From positions 412 to 64,411 of the forward strand of contig JAYUJY010000174.1 of assembly GCA_043764895.1 (NCBI GenBank): a DNA stretch of 64,000 bases, read 5' to 3'. Position 1 is the first letter of the stretch, and every line of letters begins with the position of its first letter. The notes below the pieces were generated by a model. That model was given only the letters and a program-made list of their open reading frames with translations. It ran no database searches and was not told the origin of the DNA. Position numbers and translations under genes: made by a program. The stretch comes from Synechococcales cyanobacterium (GTDB lineage: Bacteria > Cyanobacteriota > Cyanobacteriia > Leptolyngbyales > Leptolyngbyaceae). Below, one piece after another: positions 2,220 through 56,854 of this stretch.

Positions 2220-4142
2220 ATGATCGCACAACGGAATTCATTGAAGCGCAGCCGCAAAAATTTCATTGAGTGGCTGACAGCGGAGGACCGCAGTGGAAAA
2301 AATGCTCATCACCAACAGCATTCTTGGTGGAAAGTGATGTGTCTGACCGGAGTCGATTATTTTTCGACCCTAGGCTATCAGCCCGGAATTGCCGCTTTGG
2401 CCGCCGGGGCACTCTCGCCGATCGCCACCCTGATTTTGGTATTGCTCACCTTGTTTGGAGCGCTGCCCATTTACCGGAAGGTCGCGGCCATTAGTCCCCA
2501 TGGTGAAGGCTCGATTTCGATGTTGGAGCGGTTGCTGCGGTGGTGGCAGGGCAAATTATTTGTGCTCTGTCTGCTGGGATTTGTCACCACTGATTTTATT
2601 ATCACTATTACCTTATCCGCCGCCGATGCCACCGCGCACATTGTTGAAAATCCATTCATTCCCGCAGCGCTTCATCATCAAAATGTTCCCATTACATTGC
2701 TCCTAGTTTGTATGCTGGGAGCAGTTTTTTTGAACGGGTTTCACGAAGCGATCGGACTGGCGGTTGTACTCGTGATTGCGTATTTGGGACTGAATTTTGT
2801 GACGATCGGCGTTGGAATTCAACACATCATTAGTAATCCAGTTGTTATTCAGAATTGGAAGACGGCACTGTTCACGAATCATGGAAGTCCTTGGATGATT
2901 TTGGGGACGGCCTTGATGCTCTTTCCAAAATTGGCCTTAGGCTTATCGGGATTTGAGACGGGGGTTGCGGTTATGCCGCTCGTAAAGGGCGATCACGGTG
3001 AAAACGATATTCCTGGACGCGTCCGCAACACTCATAAACTATTGAGTACGGCAGCGTTGATTATGAGTTTCTTCTTGATTACCAGTAGCTTTATCACGAC
3101 GCTACTCATCGAACCTGCGAAGTTTCAACCCGGTGGACCCGCCAACGGTCGCGCCCTCGCCTACTTAGCCCACACCTACTTGGGCGATGTTTTTGGGACT
3201 GTTTATGACCTGAGTACGATTTCGATTCTGTGGTTTGCCGGAGCGTCTGCCATGGCGGGACTGCTCAATATTGTGCCACGCTACTTGCCGCGCTATGGGA
3301 TGGCTCCTAACTGGGCGAGGGCGACCCGTCCGCTGGTGCTGGTCTATACTGCGATCGCCTTTGTTGTAACAATCTTGTTTAGAGCTGACGTAGAAGCTCA
3401 GGGTGGGGCCTATGCAACGGGCGTGTTGGTCCTCATGAGTTCAGCGGCCTTTGCCGTAACGTTGGCGGCTTACCAGCGTCGATCGCGTCGTAGGGCCGTG
3501 ATGTTTGGGTTGATTACTTTAGTATTTTTCTACACGACTATTGTCAACATTATTGAGCGTCCCGATGGCGTGAAGATTTCGGCCTTCTTTATTAGTGCGA
3601 TTATTCTCACGTCGCTAGTTTCTCGGATTTGGCGATCGACTGAAATCCGATCGGATGCCGTTGAAGTCGATGAGTTGGCGGCTGAATTCATTGCCGTTGA
3701 GAGTCAACATACCATTCGGCTAATTGCCCATCGCAGTCGCGGCGACAACAGTGACGAGTACTTCTATAAAGAACAAGAAATTCGCAATGACAATACCATT
3801 CCAGAGAACTCTCCTGTGTTGTTCTTAGAAGTCAAAATATCGGATGCATCTGAGTTTGAAGAAAAAATTATGGTTCGCGGCTTTGAGATTGACGGCTACC
3901 GTGTTCTTCGGGTCCAGAGTCCGGCGGTCCCCAATGCGATCGCTGCTGTCCTCTTGCATATTCGCAACGAAACTGGAAAGCTTCCCCACGCCTATTTCGG
4001 CTGGGTCGAAGGCAATCCGGTGCAATATTTGATGCGATATTTGTTGTTTGGGGAAGGGGATACGGCGGTGGTGACGCGAGAAGTTCTTCGGCGGGCTGAG
4101 AGCGACCCGAAAAAGAGACCTTCTGTTCATGTGAGCGGTTAG
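2220..4142 (+). CDS. Polytopic membrane protein, APC-superfamily-like transporter with cytoplasmic C-terminal domain (function uncertain)
   Basis: 640-aa ORF with about 12 hydrophobic segments followed by a roughly 160-aa hydrophilic tail. No diagnostic motif recognised. Confidence 0.4.
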
Positions 4143-4278: not shown

Positions 4279-6642
4279 TTACAACACTGCAACACATTCA
4301 TACAGCGCCATTAAGGTATTGCGGGTTTTCGTTACTTCGGAAACTCCAGTACTAAATTGCATCTCTTTTTCAAGATCTAGCGTTTGTTGAACCTGCGCGA
4401 TCGTTGACGTTAGAAATTGCTGACCCGATCGCGCATCCATTCCGGGCATCAGCATGACAAACTCCCCGCTGTCCCACCGAGCGATCGCGCTGTCTGTCGG
4501 GAGCGTTGCGCGCAGGGCATCGGCCATTCCCTTCAAGATCCGCTCACTCGCCAAATACCCGAGCTTTCGAGTGATCGAGAGTAGGTTCTGAATCCCAATG
4601 ACGCCGAAACAAACGGGCTGATGAAGCCTTTCCGATTCTTGGATAAGTAACTCAAACTGTTCTTGCGATCCGGCTTGATTCCAACATTGAGTCAGCAGGT
4701 CTCGCTGTGATTGTTCTCGGAAGAGCTGCGATCGTTCCAGCCGATTGAAAATTCGAGTCATCAGTTCCGGCGCAATCACGGGCTTACTCACATAGTCATC
4801 AGCCCCGGCTGAAAACACTTTTTGCATCGTATCGGCGTCCCGGTGGGCCGTGAGAAATAGAATCGGCAATGTCGCAGTATTCATATCATTGCGAGTCTGC
4901 TGACACACCTCAATGCCATTCATCTCCGGCATCTCAAAGTCTAGTACCATCAAGTCTGGCTTGTCCTCACTCAGCATTTTTCTGGCCTGCCTAGGGTCAT
5001 TACAGGTCGTCACTTGCATTCCCCATGGCTCCAAAATCCCCTTCAGCAATAACAGCATCAGCCGATCGTCATCCACTAATAAAATCTTTGCCTCCGGCAC
5101 TGAATAGCGAGGAGCTTCGTCTAGCAGCGATTGATTAATCAGTCCCATTAGCGTTGCCAGCGGAATAGATTTTCGGAAGAATCCTTGTCCCCGATGGTTT
5201 GAAATAGCGACTCGATCGGCGGCAACTAGTCCATTGTCACCGTCATGGGTCACGATCCAGACGGGAACTCTCGGACAGTGATGCGTTAAGTGTTTTAAAA
5301 ATTCGATCGTCGCTGTTGAATCTACAGTTGAACCGACAGTTGGACCCACGTTGATGGATGCATTCAAGATCACCGCATCTGGGCACGCTCGTTCAATGGC
5401 GCTCACGGCTAGGTTCGGGTCAGCGGCCCTAACCATTTGAATGCCCCAGCGATAGGCTTCATTCATGAGTTGAGTGACCCATTCGCGATCGCCATCCACG
5501 ACCAAAATCCGTCGATCGGGAAGCCGTTCTCCCGTGACAACAGTCTCTTGGACACGGATGACATTTCCGGATGTTGCGGCCTCTAGCATTTGCGTCAACA
5601 TCCCCAACTGTTTATGCAACACTTGGATTTCAGATGGGGTATTGAGATGGGCACCCGAAATCCAAGTCCCGAGGGCTTGCAGGGTCGGTAGATGTTCAGC
5701 AATACAGACGCTACCCATGACGCCCACTAGAATGTGACCTTCTTGGCGAATTTTCGATCGCAGGTCCTCATCACTCGGATTACGCTGGAGCGCTTGGACG
5801 GAATGATCTAAAATCTGTATTCGTCGCAGCACTTTGGCCGCCTGTTTTTCCCAGAACTGTGCGATGAGCTGGGCCTGAGACGACTCGATCGCACCGCTCT
5901 CTGCATCCCTCGAATCCACTTTGGGTGCGCCCAAGGGGCTAATGATCGCAATGGAAGTGGGCGGAGCCTTCAACGCAGGATTGAGCCGATAGCCAAGTCC
6001 GTAGACCGTCTCGATCAAATCCCCTGCTCCGATCGGCTTTAGTTTTTGGCGGAGGCGCTTCATGTGAGTGCGCACGGTTTCTTCCCCGCGTGGGCCATTG
6101 TCAAGGGACCATAGGGCATCAAGCAGCGCCCGCTGACTGTAAATGCGATCTTGATGACGCAGCAGCAATTCTAGAATTCCGTATTCCTTCGTCGTCAGCA
6201 TCACAGGCGTGCCGTGGTAAGTCACATTGCATCGAGTCGGCTCAATGGCCAACGGTCCCCACGTTAGGACCGGAAGCTCCGTCACCATTCGCCGCCGCAG
6301 GAGTGCTCGAATTCTGGCTTCCAACTCGTTTAGGGCAAAGGGTTTGACTAGATAATCATCCGCGCCTGCGTCCAATCCAGAGACGCGATCGTAGGTGCTC
6401 CCCTGCGTTGACATAATCATCACCAACACTTGATTCCCCTGTTGGCGAAGCTGTTGACAAAACTCTAGTCCATCGATTCCATCTATTGATCGATCGAGCA
6501 AGATTAAATCATATTTCCCTTGTCCCACAAGTTGTAGCCCTTGCAATCCATCCTGGGCACTATCGATGACATATCGATTTTTCAACGACGTTTTCAAAAT
6601 TTCTAGAAGCTGGATGTCATCTTCAATGATCAGCAATTTCAT
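4279..6642 (-). CDS. Multidomain response regulator: REC + OmpR-type winged helix + HPt-like + pseudo-REC + REC + degenerate GGDEF
   Basis: N-terminal REC (LIIEDD...DLILLD...KP). trans_reg_C-like wHTH (TVYGLGYRL). Later REC (ILLVDDD...LMVLDFEMPEMNG...KP). C-terminal GGDEF-like domain whose active-site motif reads DSGEF. Confidence 0.8.
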   Translation of the reverse strand: MKLLIIEDDIQLLEILKTSLKNRYVIDSAQDGLQGLQLVGQGKYDLILLDRSIDGIDGLEFCQQLRQQGNQVLVMIMSTQGSTYDRVSGLDAGADDYLVKPFALNELEARIRALLRRRMVTELPVLTWGPLAIEPTRCNVTYHGTPVMLTTKEYGILELLLRHQDRIYSQRALLDALWSLDNGPRGEETVRTHMKRLRQKLKPIGAGDLIETVYGLGYRLNPALKAPPTSIAIISPLGAPKVDSRDAESGAIESSQAQLIAQFWEKQAAKVLRRIQILDHSVQALQRNPSDEDLRSKIRQEGHILVGVMGSVCIAEHLPTLQALGTWISGAHLNTPSEIQVLHKQLGMLTQMLEAATSGNVIRVQETVVTGERLPDRRILVVDGDREWVTQLMNEAYRWGIQMVRAADPNLAVSAIERACPDAVILNASINVGPTVGSTVDSTATIEFLKHLTHHCPRVPVWIVTHDGDNGLVAADRVAISNHRGQGFFRKSIPLATLMGLINQSLLDEAPRYSVPEAKILLVDDDRLMLLLLKGILEPWGMQVTTCNDPRQARKMLSEDKPDLMVLDFEMPEMNGIEVCQQTRNDMNTATLPILFLTAHRDADTMQKVFSAGADDYVSKPVIAPELMTRIFNRLERSQLFREQSQRDLLTQCWNQAGSQEQFELLIQESERLHQPVCFGVIGIQNLLSITRKLGYLASERILKGMADALRATLPTDSAIARWDSGEFVMLMPGMDARSGQQFLTSTIAQVQQTLDLEKEMQFSTGVSEVTKTRNTLMALYECVAVL

Positions 6643-6728: not shown

Positions 6729-9614
6729 TCAGTCTACTATCTTAGCCTCTGGAAATTTCTCCGTTACATAGGTTTCAAGATCCTGTATTGCGATCGTAAT
6801 TGCGGCAAGAATCCTACCGATCTCAGATGCCTGTCGATCGGAATCACGATCGGGATCACGATCGGAACCCTCGGTGCTGGCCGTAAGAGGGCTAGTCAGC
6901 GCGGATTGATGGGTTGTGGCGGCGGTCTCAAGCTCCGCTGCTAGTGACGTTAAGACCGAGAGGCCAAGATTTCCGTGGGATCCTCGAATTTGGTGAGCGA
7001 TCGCACGTAACGTTTCATAGTCTTTTCGAGCATGTGCAGTTTGGAGATTGAGACTTCGGGCATGATTTTCGTGGACGGCAAGCTGTAAAAGTTCGATCGC
7101 GAGGGGACGGTTGTCCAAGGTCACTTGCATCAATGCTCTCCAGGCTTCCTCCCAGTTTTGCTTAGGCGGCGGTGCAGATGATGCGGTCTTTAGGGTTGTT
7201 GCTCCATCTGTAGACATTGATTCTTTGGGAGACATTGATTCTTTGGGAGACGTTAACGTGTTTGGATGCATTGTCATCGCTGATAGCTTGATCGAGATGG
7301 CTTGCAACTTGACGTCTAGATCCCCTAGCCGCAAGGGCTTCCCAAAAACATCATTCATCCCCGCATCCAAACAGGCTTTGACCGCAGACTCGGAGATGTT
7401 AGCGGTCATGGCCACAATGTGAATGTTCTGATACGCCTCATGGCTCGATCGAATGCGTTGGGTGACGGCCAGACCATCTAGTTTTGGCATTTGGACATCC
7501 ATCAAGATCAAATCGTAAGGCTGAAGTTTGATTTGTGTTAAAACAGCCTCACCATCGGTAACAACATCAGCGTGGTAGCCCAGTTGAGTGAGTTGAAGAA
7601 GAATCACTTTCTGATTAACTAGGTTATCTTCTGCGAGTAATATCTTTAGGGGCGATCGAGTAACAAGATCCATAGGGCTTAAGGCATTCAATTCACTCAA
7701 TTCATTCTCCACATCACCTTCCTGAGAACGAGCGACAAGCGTAAACAGTGGAACAACTGGAAAATTCAGCGTAAATTCAAATACCGATCCCACCCCGAGT
7801 TCACTGGTGACCTGCAATTGTCCACCCATCTGATTTACCAACTGTTGACTAATCACCAGTCCTAGCCCCGTCCCACCGTAACGTCGCTGAATGGACGAAT
7901 CCGCTTGAACAAAGGGCTGAAAAAGCCGATCGATCTGCGGTTTGGACATGCCAATTCCTGAATCTATGACTCGAAAGGTGAGGGAATAGAGGGTATTAGG
8001 GTCATTAGGTTGAGATTTGGTTTGCTGAGATTTAGTTTGCTGAGGTCTAACACGAGTCGAACCTGTTACTTCTAGACGCACTTGTCCCCGATCGGTAAAT
8101 TTCACCGCATTCCCTAAAAGATTAAGCAACACCTGCCGCAACCGCAAACCATCGCCCAGAAGTGCCGATGATGAACCGGACTGAAGATTTTTTTGAAGCG
8201 TCGTCTGAATACTATCCTGAATCCTGTATTGGAGTCCAATCGCCTTGGCATGGGCTTTCGTCTCAAGCAATGCGATCGTGAGCTTGACTTCATCGAATAG
8301 ATCAAAGGGAACTGATTCTAGCGATAGCTTCCCGGCATCAATCTTCGCAAAATCCAACACATCATTAATCAATCCCAACAACATCTCCCCGCTGCGATCG
8401 ATCGTTTGAATAGAGTCGCGATCTTGAGCGTCAAGTCCCGTGCGAGCCAATAGCAAATCGGTCATTCCCAAAATGCCATTCAACGGCGTCCGCAATTCAT
8501 GACTCATCACCGCCAAAAACTCACTCCGAACTTGCAGCAGCGCCTGTATCCGCAACCGATCGTTCACCACCGCAACTCCGCCCACTCCGCCCAACAACAA
8601 ACAAGGTGCAACCACCGGAATCCATACATTCAGATGAATCGCCACAAGTGCCCCGCTCACCCAAAGCCCTATTGATCCCACCACCACTGCGCACTGAACG
8701 CCCCAAGACCACCGACTCAACCCCCAGCTCAACAGTGCGCCCAAGGGCACTAATGCCCAAATATAGAGAGGATTTAGAACTAGTAAAAAGTTGTTTTGTA
8801 AAATATTATTGATCACCGTCAGATGAAAATAAACGCCGCTGCTGGGGACACTTCGATCGAAAGGCGTTTGAAGCGAGTCTGCCCCTGTGGTAGTCATGCC
8901 GATAAGGACGATTTTGTCTGTAAAAGCTGAGGCCGGAATTTCCCGAGCGAGGACGCTAGAAAAGCTATACCGAGTCGCTTTAGCGGTCGGTCCCTGCCAG
9001 TTCAGCCACAGTAACCGATCGCTTGGCAGCTTTACCGAGTCCTGTGTGATGAGCGAGTGGGTCTGAGAAACCGTAATTCCAAAGGCGTCTACACCCTGCT
9101 CATTAGGCTTGAGCGATCGGGCAATCCCGTCAGAACTACTTCGAGTCATGATATGTCCCATGCCGATCAAAGATTTCTGGAGCGCGGGACTTGGAAAGAT
9201 AGGCATTTGGTCCTGAGTCCAAGCAAGCGGCATCACAACGCGTTGATACTCATCCATCGCCTTCGCCAGTCCAGCATCTTCCCGACTTGGCTCTGAAAGA
9301 AGGATATCAAAGGCAATGACGCTTGGATTGGCGGGAGTGAGTTGTTCGATGAGCTGCTGATATCGCTTGCGAGACCACGGAAATGCCCCTAATTTTCTTA
9401 GACTATCGTCATCAATTTCAATCACGACCACTCGATCGTCCCAAGAACGCGCTCCTCTAGATTGAAACAAAACCCGATAGCTAGCATCTTCTAACGTCTG
9501 CCACATTCCACCCATTTGGGCCAAGCTCAGCCCCAACCCCAACAGGACACCAGGAAGCATTTTCACAAGATGAGGAGAGATTTTTTGAAGTTGAGCAGGC
9601 AGCATAGGGGACAA
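6729..9614 (-). CDS. CHASE2-sensor hybrid histidine kinase (CHASE2-TM-HisKA-HATPase-REC-HPt)
   Basis: CHASE2-like N-terminus (VVVIEIDDDSLRKLGAFPWSRKRY...AFDILLSEPS). H-box [14 protein letters not shown]-boxes DSGIGM/GGTGLGL, REC (ILLAEDN...LILMDVQMPKLDG), HPt (AHQIRGSHGNLG). Confidence 0.9.
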   Translation of the reverse strand: MSPMLPAQLQKISPHLVKMLPGVLLGLGLSLAQMGGMWQTLEDASYRVLFQSRGARSWDDRVVVIEIDDDSLRKLGAFPWSRKRYQQLIEQLTPANPSVIAFDILLSEPSREDAGLAKAMDEYQRVVMPLAWTQDQMPIFPSPALQKSLIGMGHIMTRSSSDGIARSLKPNEQGVDAFGITVSQTHSLITQDSVKLPSDRLLWLNWQGPTAKATRYSFSSVLAREIPASAFTDKIVLIGMTTTGADSLQTPFDRSVPSSGVYFHLTVINNILQNNFLLVLNPLYIWALVPLGALLSWGLSRWSWGVQCAVVVGSIGLWVSGALVAIHLNVWIPVVAPCLLLGGVGGVAVVNDRLRIQALLQVRSEFLAVMSHELRTPLNGILGMTDLLLARTGLDAQDRDSIQTIDRSGEMLLGLINDVLDFAKIDAGKLSLESVPFDLFDEVKLTIALLETKAHAKAIGLQYRIQDSIQTTLQKNLQSGSSSALLGDGLRLRQVLLNLLGNAVKFTDRGQVRLEVTGSTRVRPQQTKSQQTKSQPNDPNTLYSLTFRVIDSGIGMSKPQIDRLFQPFVQADSSIQRRYGGTGLGLVISQQLVNQMGGQLQVTSELGVGSVFEFTLNFPVVPLFTLVARSQEGDVENELSELNALSPMDLVTRSPLKILLAEDNLVNQKVILLQLTQLGYHADVVTDGEAVLTQIKLQPYDLILMDVQMPKLDGLAVTQRIRSSHEAYQNIHIVAMTANISESAVKACLDAGMNDVFGKPLRLGDLDVKLQAISIKLSAMTMHPNTLTSPKESMSPKESMSTDGATTLKTASSAPPPKQNWEEAWRALMQVTLDNRPLAIELLQLAVHENHARSLNLQTAHARKDYETLRAIAHQIRGSHGNLGLSVLTSLAAELETAATTHQSALTSPLTASTEGSDRDPDRDSDRQASEIGRILAAITIAIQDLETYVTEKFPEAKIVD

Positions 9615-30972: not shown

Positions 30973-32426
30973 AAGAGTGCAACCAAACTCAAACTCATCA
31001 CCCCAACCAAATGTTCAAACTGTTCCATTACGCGGGGCAACTTAATAGACAGCTTGCGGAAAATAAACCAATAAGCCAGCCAACCTAATCCGATCGTCCC
31101 CACAGATTTCATCATGTTTTCCAGGGTGTAGGCTTGCAGATACAAACCATTGCCCACCACCAAACCACCCAATAGCAGAGCGATCGCTACCCAAAATCCA
31201 GGATTCGCAGGCTTTAGTGCAGCAGCTTTATCTAATTTGGTATCGCCATGAGGTAGAAAGATGAACTTTGCAAATGAAATAGCGGTTCCCAATGCAGCAA
31301 TATTCATGACAATCACTTGCCAAGGAAGCAACTCTTTCATCGTTAAAGCCTTCGTCCCAAACCCTGCGAGTAAGGGCATCCCAGAAATGGAAAGACTAGC
31401 GATCGTCAATGCAATCCAAAGCCGATTATCGATCGATTTCTGTTGCAGTACTTTAAAGTCACGACTAGGAAGATTTCCCACCATTAAGAACAACGCTGAT
31501 TTAACTAAGCCATGAGTCAACGCATAAAATCCACCCACAACAGGAGCCGCCAAAATAAACCCTAACTGTGAAACCGTATGAAACGCCAGCATCCGTTTAG
31601 TGTCTTTTTCAAACACTGCACAGGATACGCCTAGCATGGCTGTTGCCAATCCCAAACACCGCACGATCGGATTGATTTCCTCTAGTAGCAACGCACAGCG
31701 CACTAATGGAAAAATTCCAGCTTTCACAACAATTCCCGACATCAAAGCCGACACAGGCGTTTCTGATTCTGCATGGGTCAACGGCAACCATAACCCCGAA
31801 ACAAAAACGCCTCCTTTTACTAAAAGACCCAAGAAAATCAATGAAACGGCTTCTGTAGGTGCATTCCTGAGACCGATAAAATCAAAAGAATGGTGTGTTT
31901 GGTAAATCAGGATAGCTCCGACCAAATAGAACAACATCGCGACATTACTAACAAATAAATACCGCAATGCAACCCAAAGCGATCGATCGGTTCTAGAGTA
32001 CGCAATCAGCAAAAATGCCGAAATACTAATCACTTCAAGTGCGACATACAAACTAATAAAATCCGAACAGGCAAAGGCCGCATTCAAACTGCCATGTAAA
32101 ATCAAAACTTGAGCATAAAAGAACGTACTCTTGTCCGTGCGCCAGCAATACAAAACAACGGCCATGGTCACTAAGGCATTCGTTAAGATGAAAAATCCAG
32201 CTAAGGGATCTAGAATTAAACTCACCCCAAAATGATCCATCAACCTTAACGTGAGCGGCGCTTGATTAGGGAGCAGCAACAGGCCCGCATAGGCCGCAGA
32301 ACCGATCGTCCCGATTAAGGCTAACGATCGGTCTAATTTTGGAATGAGATAGATAATAAAGCCGATTAAAAATGGAAAGGCAATCCAAATTAACGCCATA
32401 AGATCCATTGTCAAAATATCCTTCAT
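30954..32426 (-). CDS. mrpD: Mrp antiporter subunit D (NuoN/NuoM-like proton-conducting subunit)
   Basis: 490-aa polytopic ORF of about 14 TM segments with NuoM/N-like blocks (FLLIAYSR, LPLTHAESETPVSALMSG, GFGTK). Confidence 0.8.
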   Translation of the reverse strand: MKDILTMDLMALIWIAFPFLIGFIIYLIPKLDRSLALIGTIGSAAYAGLLLLPNQAPLTLRLMDHFGVSLILDPLAGFFILTNALVTMAVVLYCWRTDKSTFFYAQVLILHGSLNAAFACSDFISLYVALEVISISAFLLIAYSRTDRSLWVALRYLFVSNVAMLFYLVGAILIYQTHHSFDFIGLRNAPTEAVSLIFLGLLVKGGVFVSGLWLPLTHAESETPVSALMSGIVVKAGIFPLVRCALLLEEINPIVRCLGLATAMLGVSCAVFEKDTKRMLAFHTVSQLGFILAAPVVGGFYALTHGLVKSALFLMVGNLPSRDFKVLQQKSIDNRLWIALTIASLSISGMPLLAGFGTKALTMKELLPWQVIVMNIAALGTAISFAKFIFLPHGDTKLDKAAALKPANPGFWVAIALLLGGLVVGNGLYLQAYTLENMMKSVGTIGLGWLAYWFIFRKLSIKLPRVMEQFEHLVGVMSLSLVALFWMVFV

Positions 32427-49789: not shown

Positions 49790-49891
49790 ATGATTAGAGG
49801 AGAAGGGCGATCGATATCTGATGCATAACAAGTTTTAGAATCGGCTAAACTGAGAATAAATCTATATCAGTAGAGTCTGGAGCTAATTTTT

Positions 49892-50161
49892 ATGCCGATC
49901 GCTTTACCACCGGAATTAGAATTATTTGCCCAACGTCAGATTGAGAGTGGAAAGTATCGTTCCATTGAAGAGGTCTTAGTAGATGGCCTTCGATCGTTAT
50001 GGGAAAAAGAAGATCTCTATCAAGGCCGTTTAGAAGAATTACGTCAGGAGGCACAGCGAGGAATTGCATCCGTGGCGCGAGGTGAACTCATCGATTTTGA
50101 TACGGCAATGGATGCAATTCGCGAAAAAATGCAACAACGCTATGGGGTCTCATGCGATTAG
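49892..50161 (+). CDS. parD: ParD-family antitoxin
   Basis: MPIALPPELELFAQRQIESGKYRSIEEVLVDGLR is a ParD/RHH-type antitoxin signature. Overlaps the parE-like start by 10 nt. Confidence 0.85.
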   Translation: MPIALPPELELFAQRQIESGKYRSIEEVLVDGLRSLWEKEDLYQGRLEELRQEAQRGIASVARGELIDFDTAMDAIREKMQQRYGVSCD

Positions 50162-50454
50162 CGTTGAATATTTCAGGGGATGCGAATCGGGATCTTGAGG
50201 CGATCGCAGATTACATCGGTGCAAACTATGGATTGTCCAGCAGCAATCAATTTATTGCGGGGATTACGGCTCGGTTGAAGTAGTTGGCACAATTTTCCAT
50301 GATGGGTCCAAGTCGTGAAGAAATCGCACCGGGGTTTCGCTCTCTAATCTACGAGCGATATTTGATTTTGTATGTGGTTCAGGAAAATTCACTGAATGTG
50401 ATACGAGTTGTGAGTGGATATCAGGATTTGACTGGGTTATTTGGGAATGAGTAA
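50152..50454 (+). pseudogene. parE: ParE/RelE-family toxin interrupted by an in-frame TAG
   Basis: Translation is MRLALNISGDANRDLEAIADYIG...ITARLK*LAQFSMMGPSREEIAPGFRSLIYERYLILYVV...IRVVSGYQD, with the TAG at 50281-50283. Both halves are ParE-like. Confidence 0.8.
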
Positions 50455-50511
50455 ATTGGGGTTGGGGTTGCGATCGCCCGATTTATTGAAGTTTGGGCGA
50501 TCGTAATAACT

Positions 50512-50625
50512 TATGATCCTATTCTTTAAGAGCTGTGCTTGGCCTGATTCCACCCAGTTATCGGGCATTGCTGAAGGCAGAACAGTAAGGCGATCGCTCG
50601 AGTGAGTTGGGAGTGATGGGCAATC
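50512..50625 (+). repeat. Repeat family R3 copy a: xisH 3'-end remnant fused to xisI 3'-end plus downstream tail
   Basis: TATGATCCTATTCTTTAAGAG matches xisH at 54848-54868. It is followed by TGTGCTTGGCCTGATTCCACCCAGTTATCGGGCATTGCTGAAGGCAGAACAGTAAGGCGATCGCTCGAGTGAGTTGGGAGTGATGGG. Confidence 0.85.
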
Positions 50626-50790
50626 GGGTTGGTATTACTATCAGCGTCTCAAATCAGTGGCAGCAGATCGCCTCAACTCAACGCCAGTATCTTTCAACTA
50701 TCCGCTATATTTGTTTTTCATGCCGCGTTGTGTGACATTGACCTCAGTTTTCAAACATAAAGAGAGGCAATCCCTGAAGATCAACCTCTC

Positions 50791-50814
50791 TAATTCTAAT
50801 TCTAATTCTAATTA
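50791..50814. repeat. Hexanucleotide microsatellite (TAATTC)x3 + TAATTA
   Basis: Read directly: TAATTCTAATTCTAATTCTAATTA. Confidence 0.9.
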
Positions 50815-50837
50815 CATTGCTGCTCGGTTTAAAGTTT

Positions 50838-51197
50838 TCAAGAGAACTCAGGACAATATGTTGGTTTAGCTACACGCGCCACTGTTTTATCCAAGAGCCA
50901 AAATGCTTGCTTCATCTCGGAACTTTCCAGTTCCTGATTTTTTACCCATTCGATATCTAAGATATCGCTTTGACTCATTCCCTGACTACGCAATTCACAA
51001 TAATTCTTACCTAGATGTACCCAAGGTACTGGATCTGCATCAAGAGTTTTGATCGCTAACTCCGATCCAAGGTTGCCCTCCATCATGACTTTCAAATCGT
51101 AAACAAAGCCACCATCTATCAAGAAGTTGGCCTGTGCAGGCAAACTAATAAACAACCAAACTACTGCCACTGCCAGCGACATGATAAACCCTTTCAT
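50838..51197 (-). CDS. Small secreted hypothetical protein
   Basis: 119-aa ORF with a clear signal peptide (MKGFIMSLAVAVVWLFISLPAQA). Lies in the HIP1-free AT-rich segment. Confidence 0.5.
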   Translation of the reverse strand: MKGFIMSLAVAVVWLFISLPAQANFLIDGGFVYDLKVMMEGNLGSELAIKTLDADPVPWVHLGKNYCELRSQGMSQSDILDIEWVKNQELESSEMKQAFWLLDKTVARVAKPTYCPEFS

Positions 51198-51364
51198 GAA
51201 TGTTCCTCTCTGGTACTAATTTTCATACATTTAGTTACCTAGTACTACGCGGCGTACGTTACCCAGTCTTTAGATTAATCATGGCTTTACCTAGCCTGAT
51301 TTGCCATTTTAAATAGCTAGTTTATTTACGCCGGAGACTACTAGGAATTGGTGCTTGCTGCTGA

Positions 51365-51880
51365 TCAAGCAAGAATCTTGAGCTTTGCGGTGTTGAATTC
51401 ACCTTCTGTGAGAGCACCAGCGTTCTTCAATTCAACAAGCTTCTTTAGTTCATCAGCCAAGTTACTGCCATTAGGTTGCTGTCCCGTGCGAGAGGACTTT
51501 TTAGCTGCTTCAATGCGTTGAGCTAACTCAGTGTAGAACTTATTGGCATCTTCAACTTCCTGTTTGATAGTTCCAGCAAACGGGAGGACATTTTCGCGCT
51601 CATCATACCCAGGCTTGAAGCTCTTTGCGTTCAAATCCCCAGACCCTGAGTAGTTAATTTCAACAAACCCATATCCAGCTATGTTCCATGAAGAAGGACG
51701 GTTGAACTGATAACTTGTGATATCCTCCAAACGCACTTTCTTCTCCCCTTTTCGACTCTTTGAGATTCCACTCAACTTGTAGATTGTCAAGAACTCAGAG
51801 TCTATTACCCATTCAGCGTACAAACGCTTAAATCCTACAGTGCTATCTTCATTTTTCAGAAGCTTGCCAAAGTCCGACAT
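51365..51880 (-). CDS. SHOCT-domain protein with N-terminal PH-like/unknown domain
   Basis: C-terminal DELKKLVELKNAGALTEGEFNTAKLKIL fits the SHOCT motif. Confidence 0.7.
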   Translation of the reverse strand: MSDFGKLLKNEDSTVGFKRLYAEWVIDSEFLTIYKLSGISKSRKGEKKVRLEDITSYQFNRPSSWNIAGYGFVEINYSGSGDLNAKSFKPGYDERENVLPFAGTIKQEVEDANKFYTELAQRIEAAKKSSRTGQQPNGSNLADELKKLVELKNAGALTEGEFNTAKLKILA

Positions 51881-52592
51881 TGCTATTTCCTCAATCCTTA
51901 TCAGATGATTAAAGTGTTCCCATCAGAAGAGAGTATCTAACTTACGATTCCTCCACTATAAATCTTGAGGTACAAGCGGCATAACTATCGAGTTGAACCG
52001 CCTTAAAACTTCTTGCGATTGCAAACGCAGTTACAGAGTGGCTCAACGGCACACCTTTCTAACAAGTCGGTTCTAACGAGATTGTTCTACTGTACCTGGT
52101 AGGATTTAGTTTTCCCAACGTAGAATATTTTATATCTTGAAGTAAATAATCATATAGACGGCTAGTTTGCTGCCTAAGTATCCAGAGCGGGATCTTAGAC
52201 TGACAAGCTATGTATATAGCAATCCTAAATGATTCATGAATTTTGGGATCCCATTTCAATCCTGGAATGCTTATCGGTCAACGGTTTCGGTCGTTAGATT
52301 TTTTACAAATGATTTAGGACTGCTATATTTCAGGAGCAAGAATCTTACCACTCTACCTAAGATTCCAAAACTAGGAATTAGAGTAATTTGGAGATAGACA
52401 TGGATCCAAAGCCGATCGCTCATCACTCCAGCCCAATCGCATAAACCGAACTCCCGAATCAAGCAACCTGAATCCCAAATCAACTAATCTGAGTCTCCGA
52501 TCGAGTAACCTACATCCCAAATCAAGTAAATCGGTCTTCAACTCATAAAGCTTCTCGATCGTCCTTAAAATGAACCTCCGATTGAATAAATC

Positions 52593-53075
52593 TTAAATCT
52601 GAGTTAATTCTCGATCGGGATTGTATTTTAAACGGAGCAGTTGATGGTGATGAAGTGAAAGTATCGCATAAGTTTTCCCGTTGTCATCACTGAAGTCCAC
52701 TTCATAAACATCAGAGGCCAAGATTTTGGCGATCGTACCGACTTGTCCAACGGAAAGACCTCGATCGGGCAGATCTTCAATTAAGGCAACGACATCCCGG
52801 TATTGAATCTTGATGGATTGTGAAATCTTTTGTAGAGAATACTGTAGGGATTGCTTGTATTTGTCTCTCTGCTCCATTCGTTCTGCCACATTTTCTGGCG
52901 AAACCTCACTATAGGTTGAGGTGCCGTCTTCATGGTGGACAGTGACAGAGTATCCATTTTCACGCAGCCTTTGGGCATGTCTACCTCGGACAGGTTTCCC
53001 CATTTGACTGAGATTATATTCAGGTAACATTTCATCTTCTTCCATCGAAGAAGTGATGTCTTTAGCTTGGGTCAT
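52593..53075 (-). CDS. BrnA-position antitoxin candidate fused to a DUF4926 domain
   Basis: Start taken at the ATG at 53075, overlapping the brnT stop by 14 nt. The N-terminal part (MLPEYNLSQMGKPVRGRHAQRL) is antitoxin-like. The C-terminal DVVALIEDLPDRGLSVGQVGTIAKILASDVYEVDFSDDNGKTYA fits DUF4926. Confidence 0.6.
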   Translation of the reverse strand: MTQAKDITSSMEEDEMLPEYNLSQMGKPVRGRHAQRLRENGYSVTVHHEDGTSTYSEVSPENVAERMEQRDKYKQSLQYSLQKISQSIKIQYRDVVALIEDLPDRGLSVGQVGTIAKILASDVYEVDFSDDNGKTYAILSLHHHQLLRLKYNPDRELTQI

Positions 53076-53337
53076 AGAGACGAGCCTCCTGAGAGGTGCA
53101 AGGGCGAGCACTAATGATTCGGATACGGTTTCCCCGTTCTGCATAGACGACTAACAGTAGCCGATTGTATTTGGATAAACCAATATCAATATAGCGCAAC
53201 TCCTCGAAAGAATGTTCTGTATCTTCAAAGGTCTCAGCATCGGTGTCTTCAAACACGGTAGAAGCTTCTTCAAAGGAAACGCCATGTTTTGTAAAATTAA
53301 TCTGGGCCTTATTCTCATCCCACTCAAAAGATCCCAT
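53062..53337 (-). CDS. brnT: BrnT-family (DUF497) toxin
   Basis: FEWDENKAQINFTKHGVSFEEASTVFED ... IRIISARP is a characteristic BrnT sequence. Confidence 0.88.
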   Translation of the reverse strand: MGSFEWDENKAQINFTKHGVSFEEASTVFEDTDAETFEDTEHSFEELRYIDIGLSKYNRLLLVVYAERGNRIRIISARPCTSQEARLYDPS

Positions 53338-53432
53338 CGATTTATTGACAGCACTTGATTTTGCGGTTCTTATAGTAACATTTCTGAGTTTTCGCTGAGC
53401 AAGTTAATCTAAAAGACATCTTGAAAAAGGCA

Positions 53433-53527
53433 ATCGTGCTTGGCCTGATTCCACCCAGTTATCGGGCATTGCTGAAGGCAGAACAGTAGGGCGATCGCTT
53501 CAATGAGTTGGGAGTGATGGGCGATCG
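53433..53527 (+). repeat. Repeat family R3 copy b (xisI 3'-end plus tail, no xisI body)
   Basis: ATCGTGCTTGGCCTGATTCCACCCAGTTATCGGGCATTGCTGAAGGCAGAACAGTAGGGCGATCGCTTCAATGAGTTGGGAGTGATGGGCGATCG. Confidence 0.85.
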
Positions 53528-53544
53528 AATTCCCATTCAATTTA

Positions 53545-53961
53545 TTACAGCAGCAATCGACGAAATCCAGCTTGTGAAAAGTGTTCATCGGCAGTTAATA
53601 CATCGGAGATGTTGCGATCGCGCATGACCGTAAAGGAAATACAATCTACTAATCCCCATTCTTTATCTAATCGGGTTTTAAAGAGTTCCAAGGCGCGGCT
53701 ATAAAGCTGAGTTGAAAGGGGGACGATCGTGACGTTTGGATCAGTTTCTAGAGACGTGAGGAGTTGGACAGCGGCTTTTCTGTAACGGGCTTTAGAGAGG
53801 GCATTACCGAGTTCGAGGAGAATTGCTTGGGTTGTAACGAGTTTTGTTTTTTGTCTTGTCAGTTCTGCGGCGATCGCCATGGCTTGGAAATGGTGCCGAT
53901 CGGTCACTGAAGAAAGAGCAATGGCAAAGGAGGTATCCAGAAAGACTTCAGTCATGAGCAT
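53545..53961 (-). CDS. vapC: PIN-domain toxin (VapC family)
   Basis: VFLDTSFAIAL N-terminal motif and C-terminal LVDCISFTVMRDRNISDVLTADEHF. Overlaps the upstream small ORF by 14 nt. Confidence 0.85.
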   Translation of the reverse strand: MLMTEVFLDTSFAIALSSVTDRHHFQAMAIAAELTRQKTKLVTTQAILLELGNALSKARYRKAAVQLLTSLETDPNVTIVPLSTQLYSRALELFKTRLDKEWGLVDCISFTVMRDRNISDVLTADEHFSQAGFRRLLL

Positions 53962-54181
53962 TCGGTTCTGGATAAATTTCGACTTGGGTAGACCAGCCGA
54001 TCGGACCTTCTAAATTAAGCGCTTGTGCCGTTTGTAGAAAGCTCGTAGGCTGGGCTGGGCTGGAAAGTTGATTGAGCTTCAAAAGTAACCATTCGGTGAG
54101 AACAAGTCCATTCCGATCGGCTTGCTGGGTAAGCGCAACGTATAATTCGTCGTTGAGTTCTAAGGAGAGATGCTGGCTCAT
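53948..54181 (-). CDS. Antitoxin partner of VapC
   Basis: 77-aa ORF overlapping the vapC start. The call rests on position and size. Confidence 0.6.
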   Translation of the reverse strand: MSQHLSLELNDELYVALTQQADRNGLVLTEWLLLKLNQLSSPAQPTSFLQTAQALNLEGPIGWSTQVEIYPEPNAHD

Positions 54182-54217
54182 GGGACGATCGGGAGAGTTA
54201 AGGTTGTACTTAGTATA

Positions 54218-54330
54218 GCGATCGATCGCTTGAGTAGCTTAGGAAGATGGACGATCGTGCTTGGCCTGATTCCACCCAGTTATCGGGCATTGCTGAAGTC
54301 CCAGCAGTAGCGCGATCGCTTGAGTAAGTC
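54218..54330 (+). repeat. Repeat family R3 copy c (tail fragment + xisI 3'-end + partial tail)
   Basis: GCGATCGATCGCTTGAGTAGCTTAGGAAGATGGACGATCG is followed by TGCTTGGCCTGATTCCACCCAGTTATCGGGCATTGCTGAAGTCCCAGCAGTAGCGCGATCGCTTGAGTAAGTC. Confidence 0.8.
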
Positions 54331-54467
54331 TGCGTTATGGTCGATCGGATGAGTATCATTAGATAAGCAGCGGCAGATAGCCTTCGTAATACAATCGCGT
54401 ACTATCATCTGTGTCATCGACTTGTTAGCGCTAATATGGTAAGTAAGATCCTAATTTTAAATGAGCA

Positions 54468-54890
54468 ATGGCAAAAGATACTTTCTATCCCCAAGTAAAA
54501 CGTGCGCTCATTAAGGACGGATGGAAGATTACGGATGATCCTCTCAAATTAGAAGTTGGAGGCGTTAAACTAGAGGTGGATTTGGGTGCAGAGCGTGTGT
54601 TAGAAGTCGTTCTAGCAGCGGAGCGTGCTAGTGAAAAGATTGCTGTCGAGGTGAAAAGCTTTATTTCAAACTCACCCATCAATGAATTGCATGGCGCATT
54701 GGGGCAGTTTATTGCTTACCGTACAGCACTCTCAGAGTTGGAACCCGATCGTAAACTTTACTTAGCCGTTCCGATCGCAACTTTTTCTGATTTTTTTCAA
54801 TTGCCGTTTCTACAGCGTTTGATTCGAGAAAACCAGTTGATTCTCATGGTTTATGATCCTATTCTTCAAGAGGTTGTCCAATGGCTGTAA
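54468..54890 (+). CDS. xisH: XisH-family protein
   Basis: MAKDTFYPQVKRALIKDGWKITDDPL...IAVEVKSF...ALGQFIAYR...KLYLAVP...MVYDP matches the XisH family. Confidence 0.9.
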   Translation: MAKDTFYPQVKRALIKDGWKITDDPLKLEVGGVKLEVDLGAERVLEVVLAAERASEKIAVEVKSFISNSPINELHGALGQFIAYRTALSELEPDRKLYLAVPIATFSDFFQLPFLQRLIRENQLILMVYDPILQEVVQWL

Positions 54891-55249
54891 GTCCTATTTC
54901 ATTGACACACTTTGAATCTGAAGTTTCGATCGATCGCTGCCGATCGGCAATCCTAACCATTTTGAGTGTAGCGATTGCGACTGAGACTGACCGTGACGTA
55001 GAAACGGAGATGATTTGCGATGAGATCCGCGATCGTTATTTGTTATTGGGACAGGGTTGGCGTGGGCAGGAGCGGGTTTATGCCGTGTGGATGCATCTAG
55101 AGATTCGCAAGGGACGGATTTGGATTCAACGAAATCAGACAGAGGTTGATTTGGAGGCTGAGTTGTTACGGTTGGGAATTCCGCAAAAATCGATCGTGCT
55201 TGGCCTGATTCCACCCAGTTATCGGGCATTGCTGAAGTCCCAGCAGTAG
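54881..55249 (+). CDS. xisI: XisI-family protein
   Basis: ...YLLLGQGWRGQERVYAVWMHLEIRKGRIWIQRNQTEVDLEAELLRLGIPQKSIVLG matches XisI. Overlaps xisH by 10 nt. Confidence 0.88.
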   Translation: MAVSPISLTHFESEVSIDRCRSAILTILSVAIATETDRDVETEMICDEIRDRYLLLGQGWRGQERVYAVWMHLEIRKGRIWIQRNQTEVDLEAELLRLGIPQKSIVLGLIPPSYRALLKSQQ

Positions 55250-55279
55250 CGCGATCGCTTGAGTGAGTTGGGAGTGATA
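55193..55279 (+). repeat. Repeat family R3 copy d (the resident xisI 3'-end and downstream tail)
   Basis: ATCGTGCTTGGCCTGATTCCACCCAGTTATCGGGCATTGCTGAAGTCCCAGCAGTAGCGCGATCGCTTGAGTGAGTTGGGAGTGAT. Confidence 0.85.
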
Positions 55280-55346
55280 ATCAAACTGCCCACGCTAAAC
55301 ACAACTGCTATCATAAGGTCAGTGAAAGACACGGAGCATTGGCATA

Positions 55347-55820
55347 ATGACCCTCCTCCAAGACGATCGACAACTCACCCATTTATCCAACCCAACCTTA
55401 TACAGTTGTGATTATGCGGCATGGGTAGAACAGACGGTGACGCTGCTGCGCGATCGATAGTTTGAAGCGGTAGATTTAGAGAACTTGATTGATGAGTTGG
55501 AGGATATGAGTCGGCGGGAAAAACGATCGCTCACTAGCAATGTGCGCGTAATTTTGATGCATTTGTTGAAATACAAATTTCAGGCTGAAAAAAGATCTAG
55601 ATCGTGGTTGGTTACGCTTCGGGAATATCGGATTCGATCGGCGGAGATTTTGGCGGATAGTCCAAGTTTACAGAACTATTTGAATGATCAGTTTGAACTT
55701 TGTTATGCACAGGCACGGCGGGAAGCAGCAGATGAGACTGGATTGGAGATTGAGGAATTTCCGATCGAATCACCCTTTACGGTTTGGCAATGTTTAGATG
55801 AGAACTTCCGCCCAGATTAA
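55347..55820 (+). pseudogene. DUF29-family gene with an in-frame TAG
   Basis: From the ATG at 55347: MTLLQDDRQLTHLSNPTLYSCDYAAWVEQTVTLLRDR*FEAVDLENLIDELEDMSRREKRSL..., with the TAG at 55458-55460. The sequence is DUF29-like on both sides of the stop. Confidence 0.75.
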
Positions 55821-56854
55821 GGGCTAGGGTAATCATTAGGCATAATTTCAACACTTTTTACAAAGAAGAATAGATCGCTGGGACGCGCACCAGGAAGTCG
55901 ATCGCCATTGGGTTCAGCGGCGTATTCCAAAATGATGTTCTTTCCTTTAAAGGACTCCTTCAGTAGGCTCCATCCATTGGGGTGATCCATAAACCAACTA
56001 TTACATTGCGTGGTGCAGTAAGCCACAATATCCGGCCCTGTTTCTGACTGGACAATGATCCGCATGTTGTCAACGCCGCCGCCACCAATGAGTTTTCCCT
56101 TGACAGTGATCGATTTATTCTCCATTGATACCTGTTTAAATTTAAACTGACTTTGAGAAATCCAGCATTCTGAATACAGTTCACGATACCAACTGTCTCC
56201 TTTCTCATCGACTTTAGGCTTTTCTCGATCGACAAAAACTTCCCCACGCTGAAAGACTTTTTTAACCGATGCCTTAAGGCTAGGCTGCGATCGGCAATTC
56301 GTCGGTGCATTACTAATTTCAGCATTAAACCCAACACTAGCTGTCGGCTCACTTCCACGAGAATTGATCGCAGAATTAGCCATCGCCATCACATTTCTTT
56401 TATGTCCATTTTTGATATAGGCCATGTAGAGAACGCCATTTTCTTGCCAAGATACAGACGCATTAATATAGGCCGATCTCTCGCTGCGATATAGAGCCTT
56501 CTTCCCTTTTGCTAGTGTCACTCTTTCAGACTTCGTGAAGGAATTATTCTCAAAGGCTGGCATCTGCCCTCCTTTTCTAGCCGAAAAAGATCCCCAATTA
56601 CAAGGAGTCGCACCCTTACATTCACGAGTGAATCCAAACGTAAATCCATATCCGGCATTTTCCCTGAATACGCTCCAATAACGATGTTGTTCAGTCTCAA
56701 TCTGAGATGGGGCAAGAATTGGAATTTGAGTGCGTCCCATAATCTGATAGGCACTTCCAACTAATTCGCCAATCGGCAAATTGAGCGCCTGGGCTGGACT
56801 AGCAAACAAAAGTGATAGTGTGGCGATCGTAATAGGAAGGGACTTATTTTTCAT
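55817..56854 (-). CDS. Secreted hypothetical protein
   Basis: 345-aa ORF with a signal peptide (LLFASPAQA). No family recognised. There may be an SH3b-like stretch in the middle. Confidence 0.45.
   Translation of the reverse strand: MKNKSLPITIATLSLLFASPAQALNLPIGELVGSAYQIMGRTQIPILAPSQIETEQHRYWSVFRENAGYGFTFGFTRECKGATPCNWGSFSARKGGQMPAFENNSFTKSERVTLAKGKKALYRSERSAYINASVSWQENGVLYMAYIKNGHKRNVMAMANSAINSRGSEPTASVGFNAEISNAPTNCRSQPSLKASVKKVFQRGEVFVDREKPKVDEKGDSWYRELYSECWISQSQFKFKQVSMENKSITVKGKLIGGGGVDNMRIIVQSETGPDIVAYCTTQCNSWFMDHPNGWSLLKESFKGKNIILEYAAEPNGDRLPGARPSDLFFFVKSVEIMPNDYPSP

Follow-up and report, generated by a model that had tools for sequence, protein, structure and literature searches.

Four copies of the end of an xisI gene punctuate a row of toxin-antitoxin (TA) cassettes in the DNA considered here, a stretch of 64,000 nucleotides from a Synechococcales cyanobacterium (assembly GCA_043764895.1, hereafter G000; contig JAYUJY010000174.1, hereafter C174; C174:412-64411) that we will call the window. 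We hold, with confidence a little better than even, that these units are the surviving 3' ends and tails of stacked xisHI modules with TA cassettes between them, that they occupy a hyper-variable accretion site downstream of a histidine-kinase-like gene (HK gene), and that the array grew by recombinase-free serial insertion, followed by deletions and gene conversion. An earlier reading of the sequence (the original prediction) had proposed that the array was built by recombination at this sequence or by serial insertion of modules next to xisHI-type ends. This is now supported by the boundaries at which strains differ, by an insert in one lineage that faces an empty site in G000, and by the concerted evolution of the core of the unit.

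The xisI-end unit and the xisHI relics

The source genome comprises 4,995,735 bases in 285 contigs and is 99.55% complete. A repeat search and a pattern scan place the copies of the unit, all in direct orientation on the plus strand, at 50535-50626 (a), 53436-53527 (b), 54257-54348 (c) and 55196-55287 (d), and b-d are 76-95% identical to copy a across 92 nt. The four direct xisI-end copies of the original prediction are therefore real, and the genome-wide BLASTN that had been suggested alongside them, run with the unit of about 92 nt against the whole assembly, returns these four and none elsewhere in 4,995,735 bases, so that chance is excluded. The first part of the unit is the final 57 nt of xisI, whose translation ends in IVLGLIPPSYRALLK followed by SQQ or AEQ and the stop codon. 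The second part is a tail that reads GCGATCGC-TTGAGTGAGTTGGGAGTGATGG-GCGATCG and is thus bracketed by sites of the HIP1 palindrome (GCGATCGC), a feature that had been overlooked. An extra tail fragment before copy c had been noticed; it is an orphan tail copy, T' (54223-54257, plus strand, repeat family D4), which is 74% identical to the tail of c and meets unit c at a CGATCG site.

The copies have not diverged evenly along their length. The opening 42 nt, or core, are identical in a, b, c and d (42/42), while a/b and c/d differ at 4-5 positions in the next 12 nt and at 12-22 positions (24-44%) in the 50 nt that follow the core; between copies, the tails differ at 4-19 of 38 positions. Copies c and d are 98.7% identical over 78 nt. 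The orthologous unit of the related genome G009 differs from G000 at 4 of the 42 core positions. Because the core is identical within G000, the DNA after it has diverged and the orthologue differs, we read this as concerted evolution within G000, which indicates that the core was homogenised there by gene conversion or repeated crossovers rather than being evolutionarily invariant. Look-ups of the exact proteins led back to the same assembly and to one Logan unitig, which breaks within the cores of a and b, and found no extra variants.

Copy d is the genuine 3' end of an intact xisI. This gene (54881-55249) follows xisH (54468-54890) on the plus strand with a 10-nt overlap, and both products score well above the gathering cut-off of 25 bits (XisH: PF08814, E 6e-50, 169 bits; XisI: PF08869, E 2.5e-27, 96 bits). 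The last seven residues of this XisI, ALLKSQQ, deviate from the usual T.[FY]A[VI]A tip. The tail of d is truncated, so that as a feature unit d runs from 55196 to 55276, and homology to G009 and to L072, a contig of the same lineage, resumes on the DUF29 side from 55277 (breakpoint BP8).

The other copies are relics of the same pair of genes. Unit a consists of XisI codons 106-122 (VLGLIPPSYRALLKAEQ and stop) and the tail. It is preceded by a stretch of about 21 nt that had been matched to the 3' end of xisH, and this match holds (50511-50532 against 54851-54872, 21/22 bases; 0/300 shuffles reach the score) and extends by tblastn to XisH codons ~125-136, read IVITYDPIL*EL, at 50500-50535 on the plus strand. 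The earlier description of copy a as an xisHI module with its interior deleted is thus borne out, XisH codons ~125-136 being fused to XisI codon 106. What had escaped notice is that copy b is also a remnant of the whole pair. An xisH relic of codons ~96-109 (53352-53392, plus strand) is 71% identical at the nucleotide level to 54754-54795 (a local alignment score of 35, where the best of the shuffles gives 33; 0/300), and an xisI relic of codons ~88-122 (53388-53527, plus strand; reading frame 53388-53489, ending in VFAEQVNLKDILKKAIVLGLIPPSYRALLKAEQ and stop) holds unit b. This relic has diverged upstream of the core and is identical within it; by tblastn it matches the window XisI at E 4e-8, against E 0.13 over 26 aa for the paralogue on C3. 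On its sequence, copy b, like a, is a gutted whole xisHI module, in which an xisH relic is joined to the last ~35 codons of xisI. Copy c begins at XisI codon 104, at the CGATCG site that links it to T', and holds codons 104-122 and a diverged tail by tblastn. The 5' truncation points therefore lie at XisH codon ~125 in a, XisH codon ~96 in b and XisI codon 104 in c, and d has none. Since collinear remains of xisH and xisI persist in a and b, with differing internal deletions, whole modules were once present, and the array reads as what is left of three or more xisHI modules, probably four, all in direct orientation.

Unit boundaries in related strains and in other arrays

The unit was searched for in 40 relatives and then in 89 other genomes of the family, and in one genome-collection scan and one metagenome scan. 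Outside G000, G009 is the only one of the 89 other family genomes to carry it, with 87-95% identity over the region, and the two scans returned it in G009-type contigs only. A dispersed mobile element was considered and rejected, the unit being confined to this locus in G000 and to the G009 type beyond it. Two metagenome contigs of the G009 lineage, L071 and L072, give the full G009-type arrangement. In this arrangement, the HK gene is followed by a 156-aa open reading frame (ORF) or its remnant in place of parDE, by a hairpin and by a copy a' with the same xisH fragment, which is kept in G009, L071 and L072. Then come, in L072, a tail T', a different 173-aa ORF, a short tandem repeat (R21), a DUF4926 gene and a truncated brnT that abuts a tail (T) and a segment Y; after Y lie three ABC-transporter genes, R21 again, the DUF29 gene and a TPR gene. 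Copies b and c, vapBC and this xisHI pair are missing from G009.

What runs a'-T'-173-aa ORF-R21-DUF4926-brnT'|T-Y in L072 is contiguous a-T-Y in G000, and for this reason we read the G009-type lineage as carrying an insert flanked by duplicated unit parts, with G000 as the empty site. The brnT'|T joint of L072 shows an AAGG microhomology adjoining HIP1, from which it follows that an a/b-type xisI end (…TAAGG) once preceded the L072 tail. Homology between the strains starts or stops at a HIP1 site after the HK gene (49813), at the HIP1 of the hairpin (50470), at a degenerate HIP1 that ends tail a and where tail d ends (55276/55277). In G009/L072, the brnTA block matches at 95% identity, against 87-91% for its flanks, and brnT is truncated there (BP5). 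The segments nearest to the HK gene are the most variable of all, with parDE in G000, the 156-aa ORF in L071 and a truncation in G009. The nearest strain, represented by G009 (contig C37), L071 and L072 and with ~90% identity in G009 and L072, thus carries different cargo and differs at the unit boundaries, and the junctions are polymorphic among strains, so the original prediction holds at the point on which it had staked itself.

A more distant congener, G008, carries parD … R21, DUF4926 and brnT, and then another xisI 3' relic 1.2 kb further on, which makes the brnTA-xisI neighbourhood an old one. That relic (L046; G008:C40, reverse complement 6051-6137) has the canonical C-terminus (DIVLGLHSKSLRRFSDYAI).

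The same layout recurs across the genome. A census by self-BLAST of G000, in which arrays with at least three direct-repeat copies were counted, gives 28 local direct-repeat arrays, mostly with 0.6-1.1 kb spacing. At least eight of these begin, in gene orientation, with a copy that is the genuine 3' end of a large anchor gene; TA-type cassettes, small and mostly of two genes, are stacked behind it, and relics of that end trail after each of them. The anchors, identified from sequence motifs only and with no family search, are a NACHT-WD40 protein of 1465 aa (C227), NB-ARC STAND proteins (C31 and C148), an MmeI-like methyltransferase (C65), HsdS (C83), a nuclease-like protein (C224), MetH (C146) and, for array R4 inside the window, the adjacent NLR gene. 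The R4 units read QADRLS.HPMT in the frame of that gene, and so they are its reiterated 3' end. In arrays C227 and C43, xisHI pairs are plain cargo, and in the C227-type array the presence and order of the cassettes vary among congeners. The xisI array is therefore one case of a common architecture, atypical only in having a small cassette as its anchor and in that its intact copy comes last.

Other contigs with arrays include C43, C62 and C268. The units of several arrays (C227, e.g. 30974-31168, C43 and C62) are bounded by a 10-nt inverted repeat (CGATCGCCCC/GGGGCGATCG); units of this type also hold purine-rich heptamer-like runs (GAATTGA/GAATGTA), and some hold a hairpin insert of ~30 nt (GTTGGCGAAGCCTCCCGGAACGGGAATCGC family) with the look of a small MITE (miniature inverted-repeat transposable element). 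Within the window itself, the segment 39157-48003 contains the R4 TA array, an NLR/Bell pair and SPFH genes. In G009, nothing corresponding to it lies by the SNF2 gene end or by the HK gene, and this island appears to be strain-specific as a whole.

The strongest alternative, which we nevertheless regard as unlikely, is plain local paralogy. In that case xisHI was tandem-duplicated by unequal crossing-over, the TA cassettes landed independently, the spare copies decayed and the repeat played no role in capture. Copies a and b are indeed decayed whole modules, G000 carries ~10 XisI and 8 XisH loci, several of them decayed, and gene conversion alone could explain the identical core. Yet the xisH relic of b is only 71% identical to the live gene, against 92-100% for the unit, so copy b is not a recent duplicate. 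The strain differences, moreover, are whole blocks bounded by unit parts, and the succession of gene end, cassette and gene end recurs behind unrelated anchors with heterogeneous cargo, for which duplication alone is insufficient. The original prediction had named a rival of its own, decayed xisI paralogues with independent flanks; the decay is real and concerns xisHI modules, but the tails are shared and the junctions polymorphic.

Cargo between and around the units

The gene content that had been read in the intervals is confirmed by Pfam: ParDE, two orphan ORFs with DUF4926-BrnT, VapC with a partner, XisHI, and DUF29 after the last unit, the VapB label resting on position only. The layer closest to the HK gene holds parD (49892-50161, plus strand; PF03693, E 1.9e-5) and parE (50152-50454, plus strand), an ORF whose translation is broken by an in-frame TAG at 50281-50283 and whose C-terminal half matches PF05016. 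In G009, L071 and L072, parD is not found at this position, the strains diverging just after GGGCGATCG at 49813 (BP1). Homology to the G009-type strains resumes at a HIP1-stemmed hairpin (GCGATCGCCC...GGGCGATCG) at 50470-50503 (BP2).

Tail a and segment Y (50587-50706, plus strand) are 76-78% identical by BLAST to L072, where they correspond to a tail-only copy and to sequence downstream of the gene for an ABC-transporter ATPase. They are followed by a foreign-looking block on the minus strand (50707-52457), delimited by Pfam, CGATCG positions, GC content and comparison with L072. It contains a 119-aa ORF with a hydrophobic N-terminus (50838-51197) and a 171-aa ORF (51365-51880) with a weak, sub-threshold SHOCT match at its C-terminus, and its GC content is 40-43%. 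CGATCG is absent from 50597 to 52412 (1.8 kb), against a genome density of 5.1 per kb, and this CGATCG-free block is probably recent foreign DNA that stands in place of the ABC-transporter operon of L072. A MITE-like element of 120 nt (52208-52328) with terminal inverted repeats of ~20 nt (TATAGCAATCCTAAATGATT / AATGATTTAGGACTGCTATA) lies in this region; it is single-copy in G000, has 98-99% identical counterparts in G009 (C88) and in G011, a genome from another genus, and short fragments of its ends occur in several further genomes.

R21 (52458-52529, plus strand; repeat family D2) consists of three tandem 21-nt units (ATCGAGTAACCTGAATCCCAA-like) downstream of the DUF4926 gene. It marks a breakpoint (BP4) and occurs twice in L072 (~996-1060 and 5238-5321), including before DUF29 in the G009-type strain; it may be a second recombination joint. 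The brnT toxin gene (53062-53337; PF04365, E 1e-27) and its DUF4926 partner (52593-53075; PF16277, E 6e-20) occupy 52593-53337 on the minus strand, and vapC, with a PIN domain (53545-53961; PF01850, E 7.5e-14), and a 77-aa upstream partner gene (53948-54181) occupy 53545-54181, also on the minus strand. No Pfam family matches this partner, and only its position makes it VapB-like.

These two operons bring up the improbable idea that the unit was selected as a cis element (a promoter or operator, a terminator or an antisense RNA) for neighbouring minus-strand operons and travelled with the cassettes. The start of brnT is 15 nt from the layer b xisH relic and that of the 77-aa vapB-like gene is 42 nt from T', so their promoters must lie inside relic or unit DNA, and the 42-nt core is perfectly conserved in non-coding copies. 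However, a scan for consensus motifs puts neither a sigma-70-like promoter nor an intrinsic terminator inside any of the units, no Rfam family, tRNA or conserved fold is found in the unit, copy a has no adjacent minus-strand operon start, and the G009 copy differs at 4 of the 42 core positions.

The conserved right flank of the stack is the DUF29 gene (55347-55820, plus strand; PF01724, E 1e-33), which has an in-frame TAG at 55458-55460 and is 89.6% identical in G009/L072. In the G009-type DUF29 gene (L044/L072) the in-frame TAG is a different one, changed from CAG at another codon, so that with parE and both DUF29 versions there are three independent amber codons in small accessory genes across the two strains. 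Beyond it, a 345-aa minus-strand gene (55817-56854) is missing from G009/L072; an ATTAAG direct repeat flanks it on both sides in G000, which makes it a simple microhomology indel.

Proposed serial insertion, site-specific systems and known parallels

Under serial insertion, each layer would be a 5'-truncated xisHI, then the unit, then the cargo. Homologous crossover within the shared stretch would bring in DNA that carries a copy of the xisI end beside new cargo, from another chromosome copy or from another strain. The other end of this DNA would be joined illegitimately at a short microhomology, often CGATCG/HIP1. The process would amount either to circularisation of the fragment and its Campbell-type integration or to homology-facilitated illegitimate recombination. 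The shared stretch would thereby be duplicated, and the resident copy would be pushed downstream and truncated at the illegitimate joint. Redundant xisHI copies would later be gutted by internal deletions, and the 42-nt core would be homogenised through gene conversion or repeated crossovers. Such a process would need no dedicated recombinase, and XisH and XisI would be passengers or anchors rather than machinery. The order of these events, the circular intermediate and the part played by HIP1 are inferred; what is observed are the repeat copies, the xisHI relics, the identical core, the polymorphism of strains at the unit boundaries, the recurrence across the genome and the lack of recombinase and att features. 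This model explains the 5'-truncated xisHI with differing ends, the T'|CGATCG|core joint and the hybrid copy b, as well as the strain pair of insert and empty site and the higher variability on the HK side.

What the HIP1 palindrome is for has gone unanswered for about 30 years. It is reported to act like Chi in raising homologous integration (bioRxiv 10.1101/2024.09.10.611283) and has been proposed as an uptake signal (PMC13756078). At the xisI locus, 6 of the 15 joints have a CGATCG no more than 3 nt away (expected 7.6%, P 5e-4), and in eight other anchored arrays 10 of 26 left ends of relics lie within 6 nt of it (expected 11.8%, P 4.5e-4), although the scored joints were defined by ourselves and relics within one array are not independent. 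These CGATCG-enriched joints give a testable link between HIP1, recombination and the building of islands.

The way in which the joints were scored is one of several points that weigh against serial insertion. CGATCG is absent near 4 of 10 strain breakpoints. The comparison draws on one close lineage (G009, L071 and L072), and among the genomes searched none presents an empty site for layers b, c and d of G000. The intact xisHI stands at the last copy, whereas the intact gene comes first in clean anchored arrays, so that the model must assume that copy a is a former anchor, later degraded, and that copy d was displaced whole. Finally, the events that separate G000 from L072 fit no unique order, circle integration at the tail or at R21 and duplication followed by deletion both being compatible with them.

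A wider claim is possible, though we doubt it more than we credit it: recombinase-free cassette capture might be active across this cyanobacterial genus, with any gene end serving as a portable landing pad. Natural transformation or exchange between chromosome copies would deliver a gene end and a cassette, HIP1/CGATCG sites would be preferred points of crossover or joining, and TA and defence stacks would grow and be shuffled behind their anchors. On this view, the xisI array would be a worn case whose anchor was itself a cassette.

Site-specific systems were also considered. The original prediction had found such a mechanism conceivable from the link of XisH and XisI to the excision of DNA elements, and this suggestion is not supported. 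No match to the serine recombinase family (PF00239) was found in the 99.55%-complete G000, while 12 of 14 control genomes have one; G000 thus has no XisF partner, and XisF-dependent excision was rejected. No element interrupts a gene here, as the units are the xisI end itself and the flanking ORFs are complete TA genes or xisHI relics. Contig C174 has no integrase-like gene at E<=0.001, Pfam analysis of all interval ORFs gives TA families or nothing, and the same architecture stands on unrelated anchors.

The sole integron integrase of G000 (TIGR02249, 356 bits, cut-off 265; C89:24257-25227) is split by a frameshift. Beside it, at C89:22400-24250, lies a short divergent cassette array with its own junction sequences, including a pair read as RelE/ParE-like from sequence, and C169 carries two relics of the intI 3' end (3021-3128 and 9156-9233), separated by 6 kb. 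No AAC...GTT inverse-core pair spans any unit of the xisI array, a result to which we give little weight, the crude core scan being unspecific and having missed candidate attC sites picked by eye in the C89 control. For this reason, the structural argument against attC rests mainly on the folds. As DNA, a and b fold no better than shuffles and the stems of c and d are HIP1 pairing only, with inconsistent z-scores of +0.2 to -2.7; the units of the other arrays have no attC-like fold and no inverse cores. The integron reading was rejected, the units not being attC-like and intI being frameshifted and on another contig.

The unit as an attachment site for a recombinase acting in trans, by integron-like capture or XisHI-assisted excision of mobile cassettes, is accordingly the least credible reading of all: the layout, with direct repeats ~0.8-2.9 kb apart and TA genes as cargo, does recall chromosomal integrons, an integrase is encoded in G000, and XisH belongs to the PD-(D/E)XK nuclease superfamily (PMC3424549), but that integrase is broken and serves its own small array with different junctions, no serine recombinase is present, the unit has neither an inverse-core pair nor a hairpin beyond HIP1 pairing, each array has its own unit derived from a local gene end, partial units exist (tail-only copies and variable 5' truncation points) and the cassettes lie on both strands.

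With serial insertion as the favoured reading, the locus and its approximately 28 sister arrays can be taken as a natural record of serial cassette capture through gene-end duplication. Little is understood of how TA and small defence operons spread when they have no mobility genes. For annotation, short xisI-like and other gene-end fragments between TA operons are better regarded as recombination scars than as genes, and XisHI pairs in such genomes would act as cassettes rather than as excision factors.

Several known systems share parts of this picture. Integron arrays and clusters of attC sites lacking integrases (CALINs) also consist of small, repeat-punctuated cassettes rich in TA genes, and intI occurs in this genome, but the present units are not attC, are specific to each array and derive from local genes, the cassettes lie on both strands, and intI is frameshifted and elsewhere. 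The fdxN element of heterocystous cyanobacteria is excised by XisF, XisH and XisI (Hwang et al. 2014, as cited in PMC4853749) and shares two protein families with the window; here, in contrast, there is no XisF or other serine recombinase and no interrupted gene, and the behaviour of xisHI is that of a TA-like cassette. Other filamentous bacteria are known to have XisHI pairs but no XisF (PMC4853749). In integrase islands at tRNA, ssrA or gene 3' ends, a reiterated gene 3' end likewise separates successive inserts; unlike them, the present inserts are single 0.8-kb operons with variable truncation points and no integrase in or near them.

The stack structure also resembles the displacement of effector C-termini at rhs, contact-dependent inhibition (cdi) and type VI secretion system (T6SS) loci (Jackson et al. 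2009, PMC2935791), where recombination in a shared stretch of the anchor pushes 5'-truncated copies downstream and leaves a stack of relics with cargo. In Rhs/CDI loci, the incoming DNA brings a new functional gene tip and an immunity gene, whereas here the terminal end repeats and the cargo consists of unrelated TA operons. The 5'-truncated copies expected of a displacement array are present as a, b and c, but the intact xisHI is last; an intact 5' anchor is found in eight other arrays of G000. Among described processes, the nearest is the one known as insertion with long target duplication (Nobusato et al. 2000; Furuta, Abe and Kobayashi 2010, PMC2853133), in which restriction-modification units without mobility genes insert with a long duplicated repeat that may overlap a gene 3' end, a case being known in Microcystis. 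In that process, a selfish unit of the addiction type, without mobility genes, is flanked by direct repeats of more than 30 bp; these are unique in the genome, often overlap the 3' end of a gene and occur once where a related strain has the empty site. The L072 insert, set against G000, fits this description. The absence of mobility genes and the unique flanking repeats of more than 30 bp are both found at our locus, and the empty site is seen for the L072/G009 insert (a'T'...T against a-T-Y in G000), not for layers b, c and d of G000. The differences are that the cargo consists here of TA pairs rather than restriction-modification genes, that insertion is iterated to 3-7 layers, that the target is a small xisHI end, itself multi-copied and then decayed, and that the joints tend to lie at HIP1/CGATCG. 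Beyond the original prediction, the analysis adds the copy b relic, the concerted core, a sister strain that is polymorphic at the unit boundaries, and the 28 arrays.

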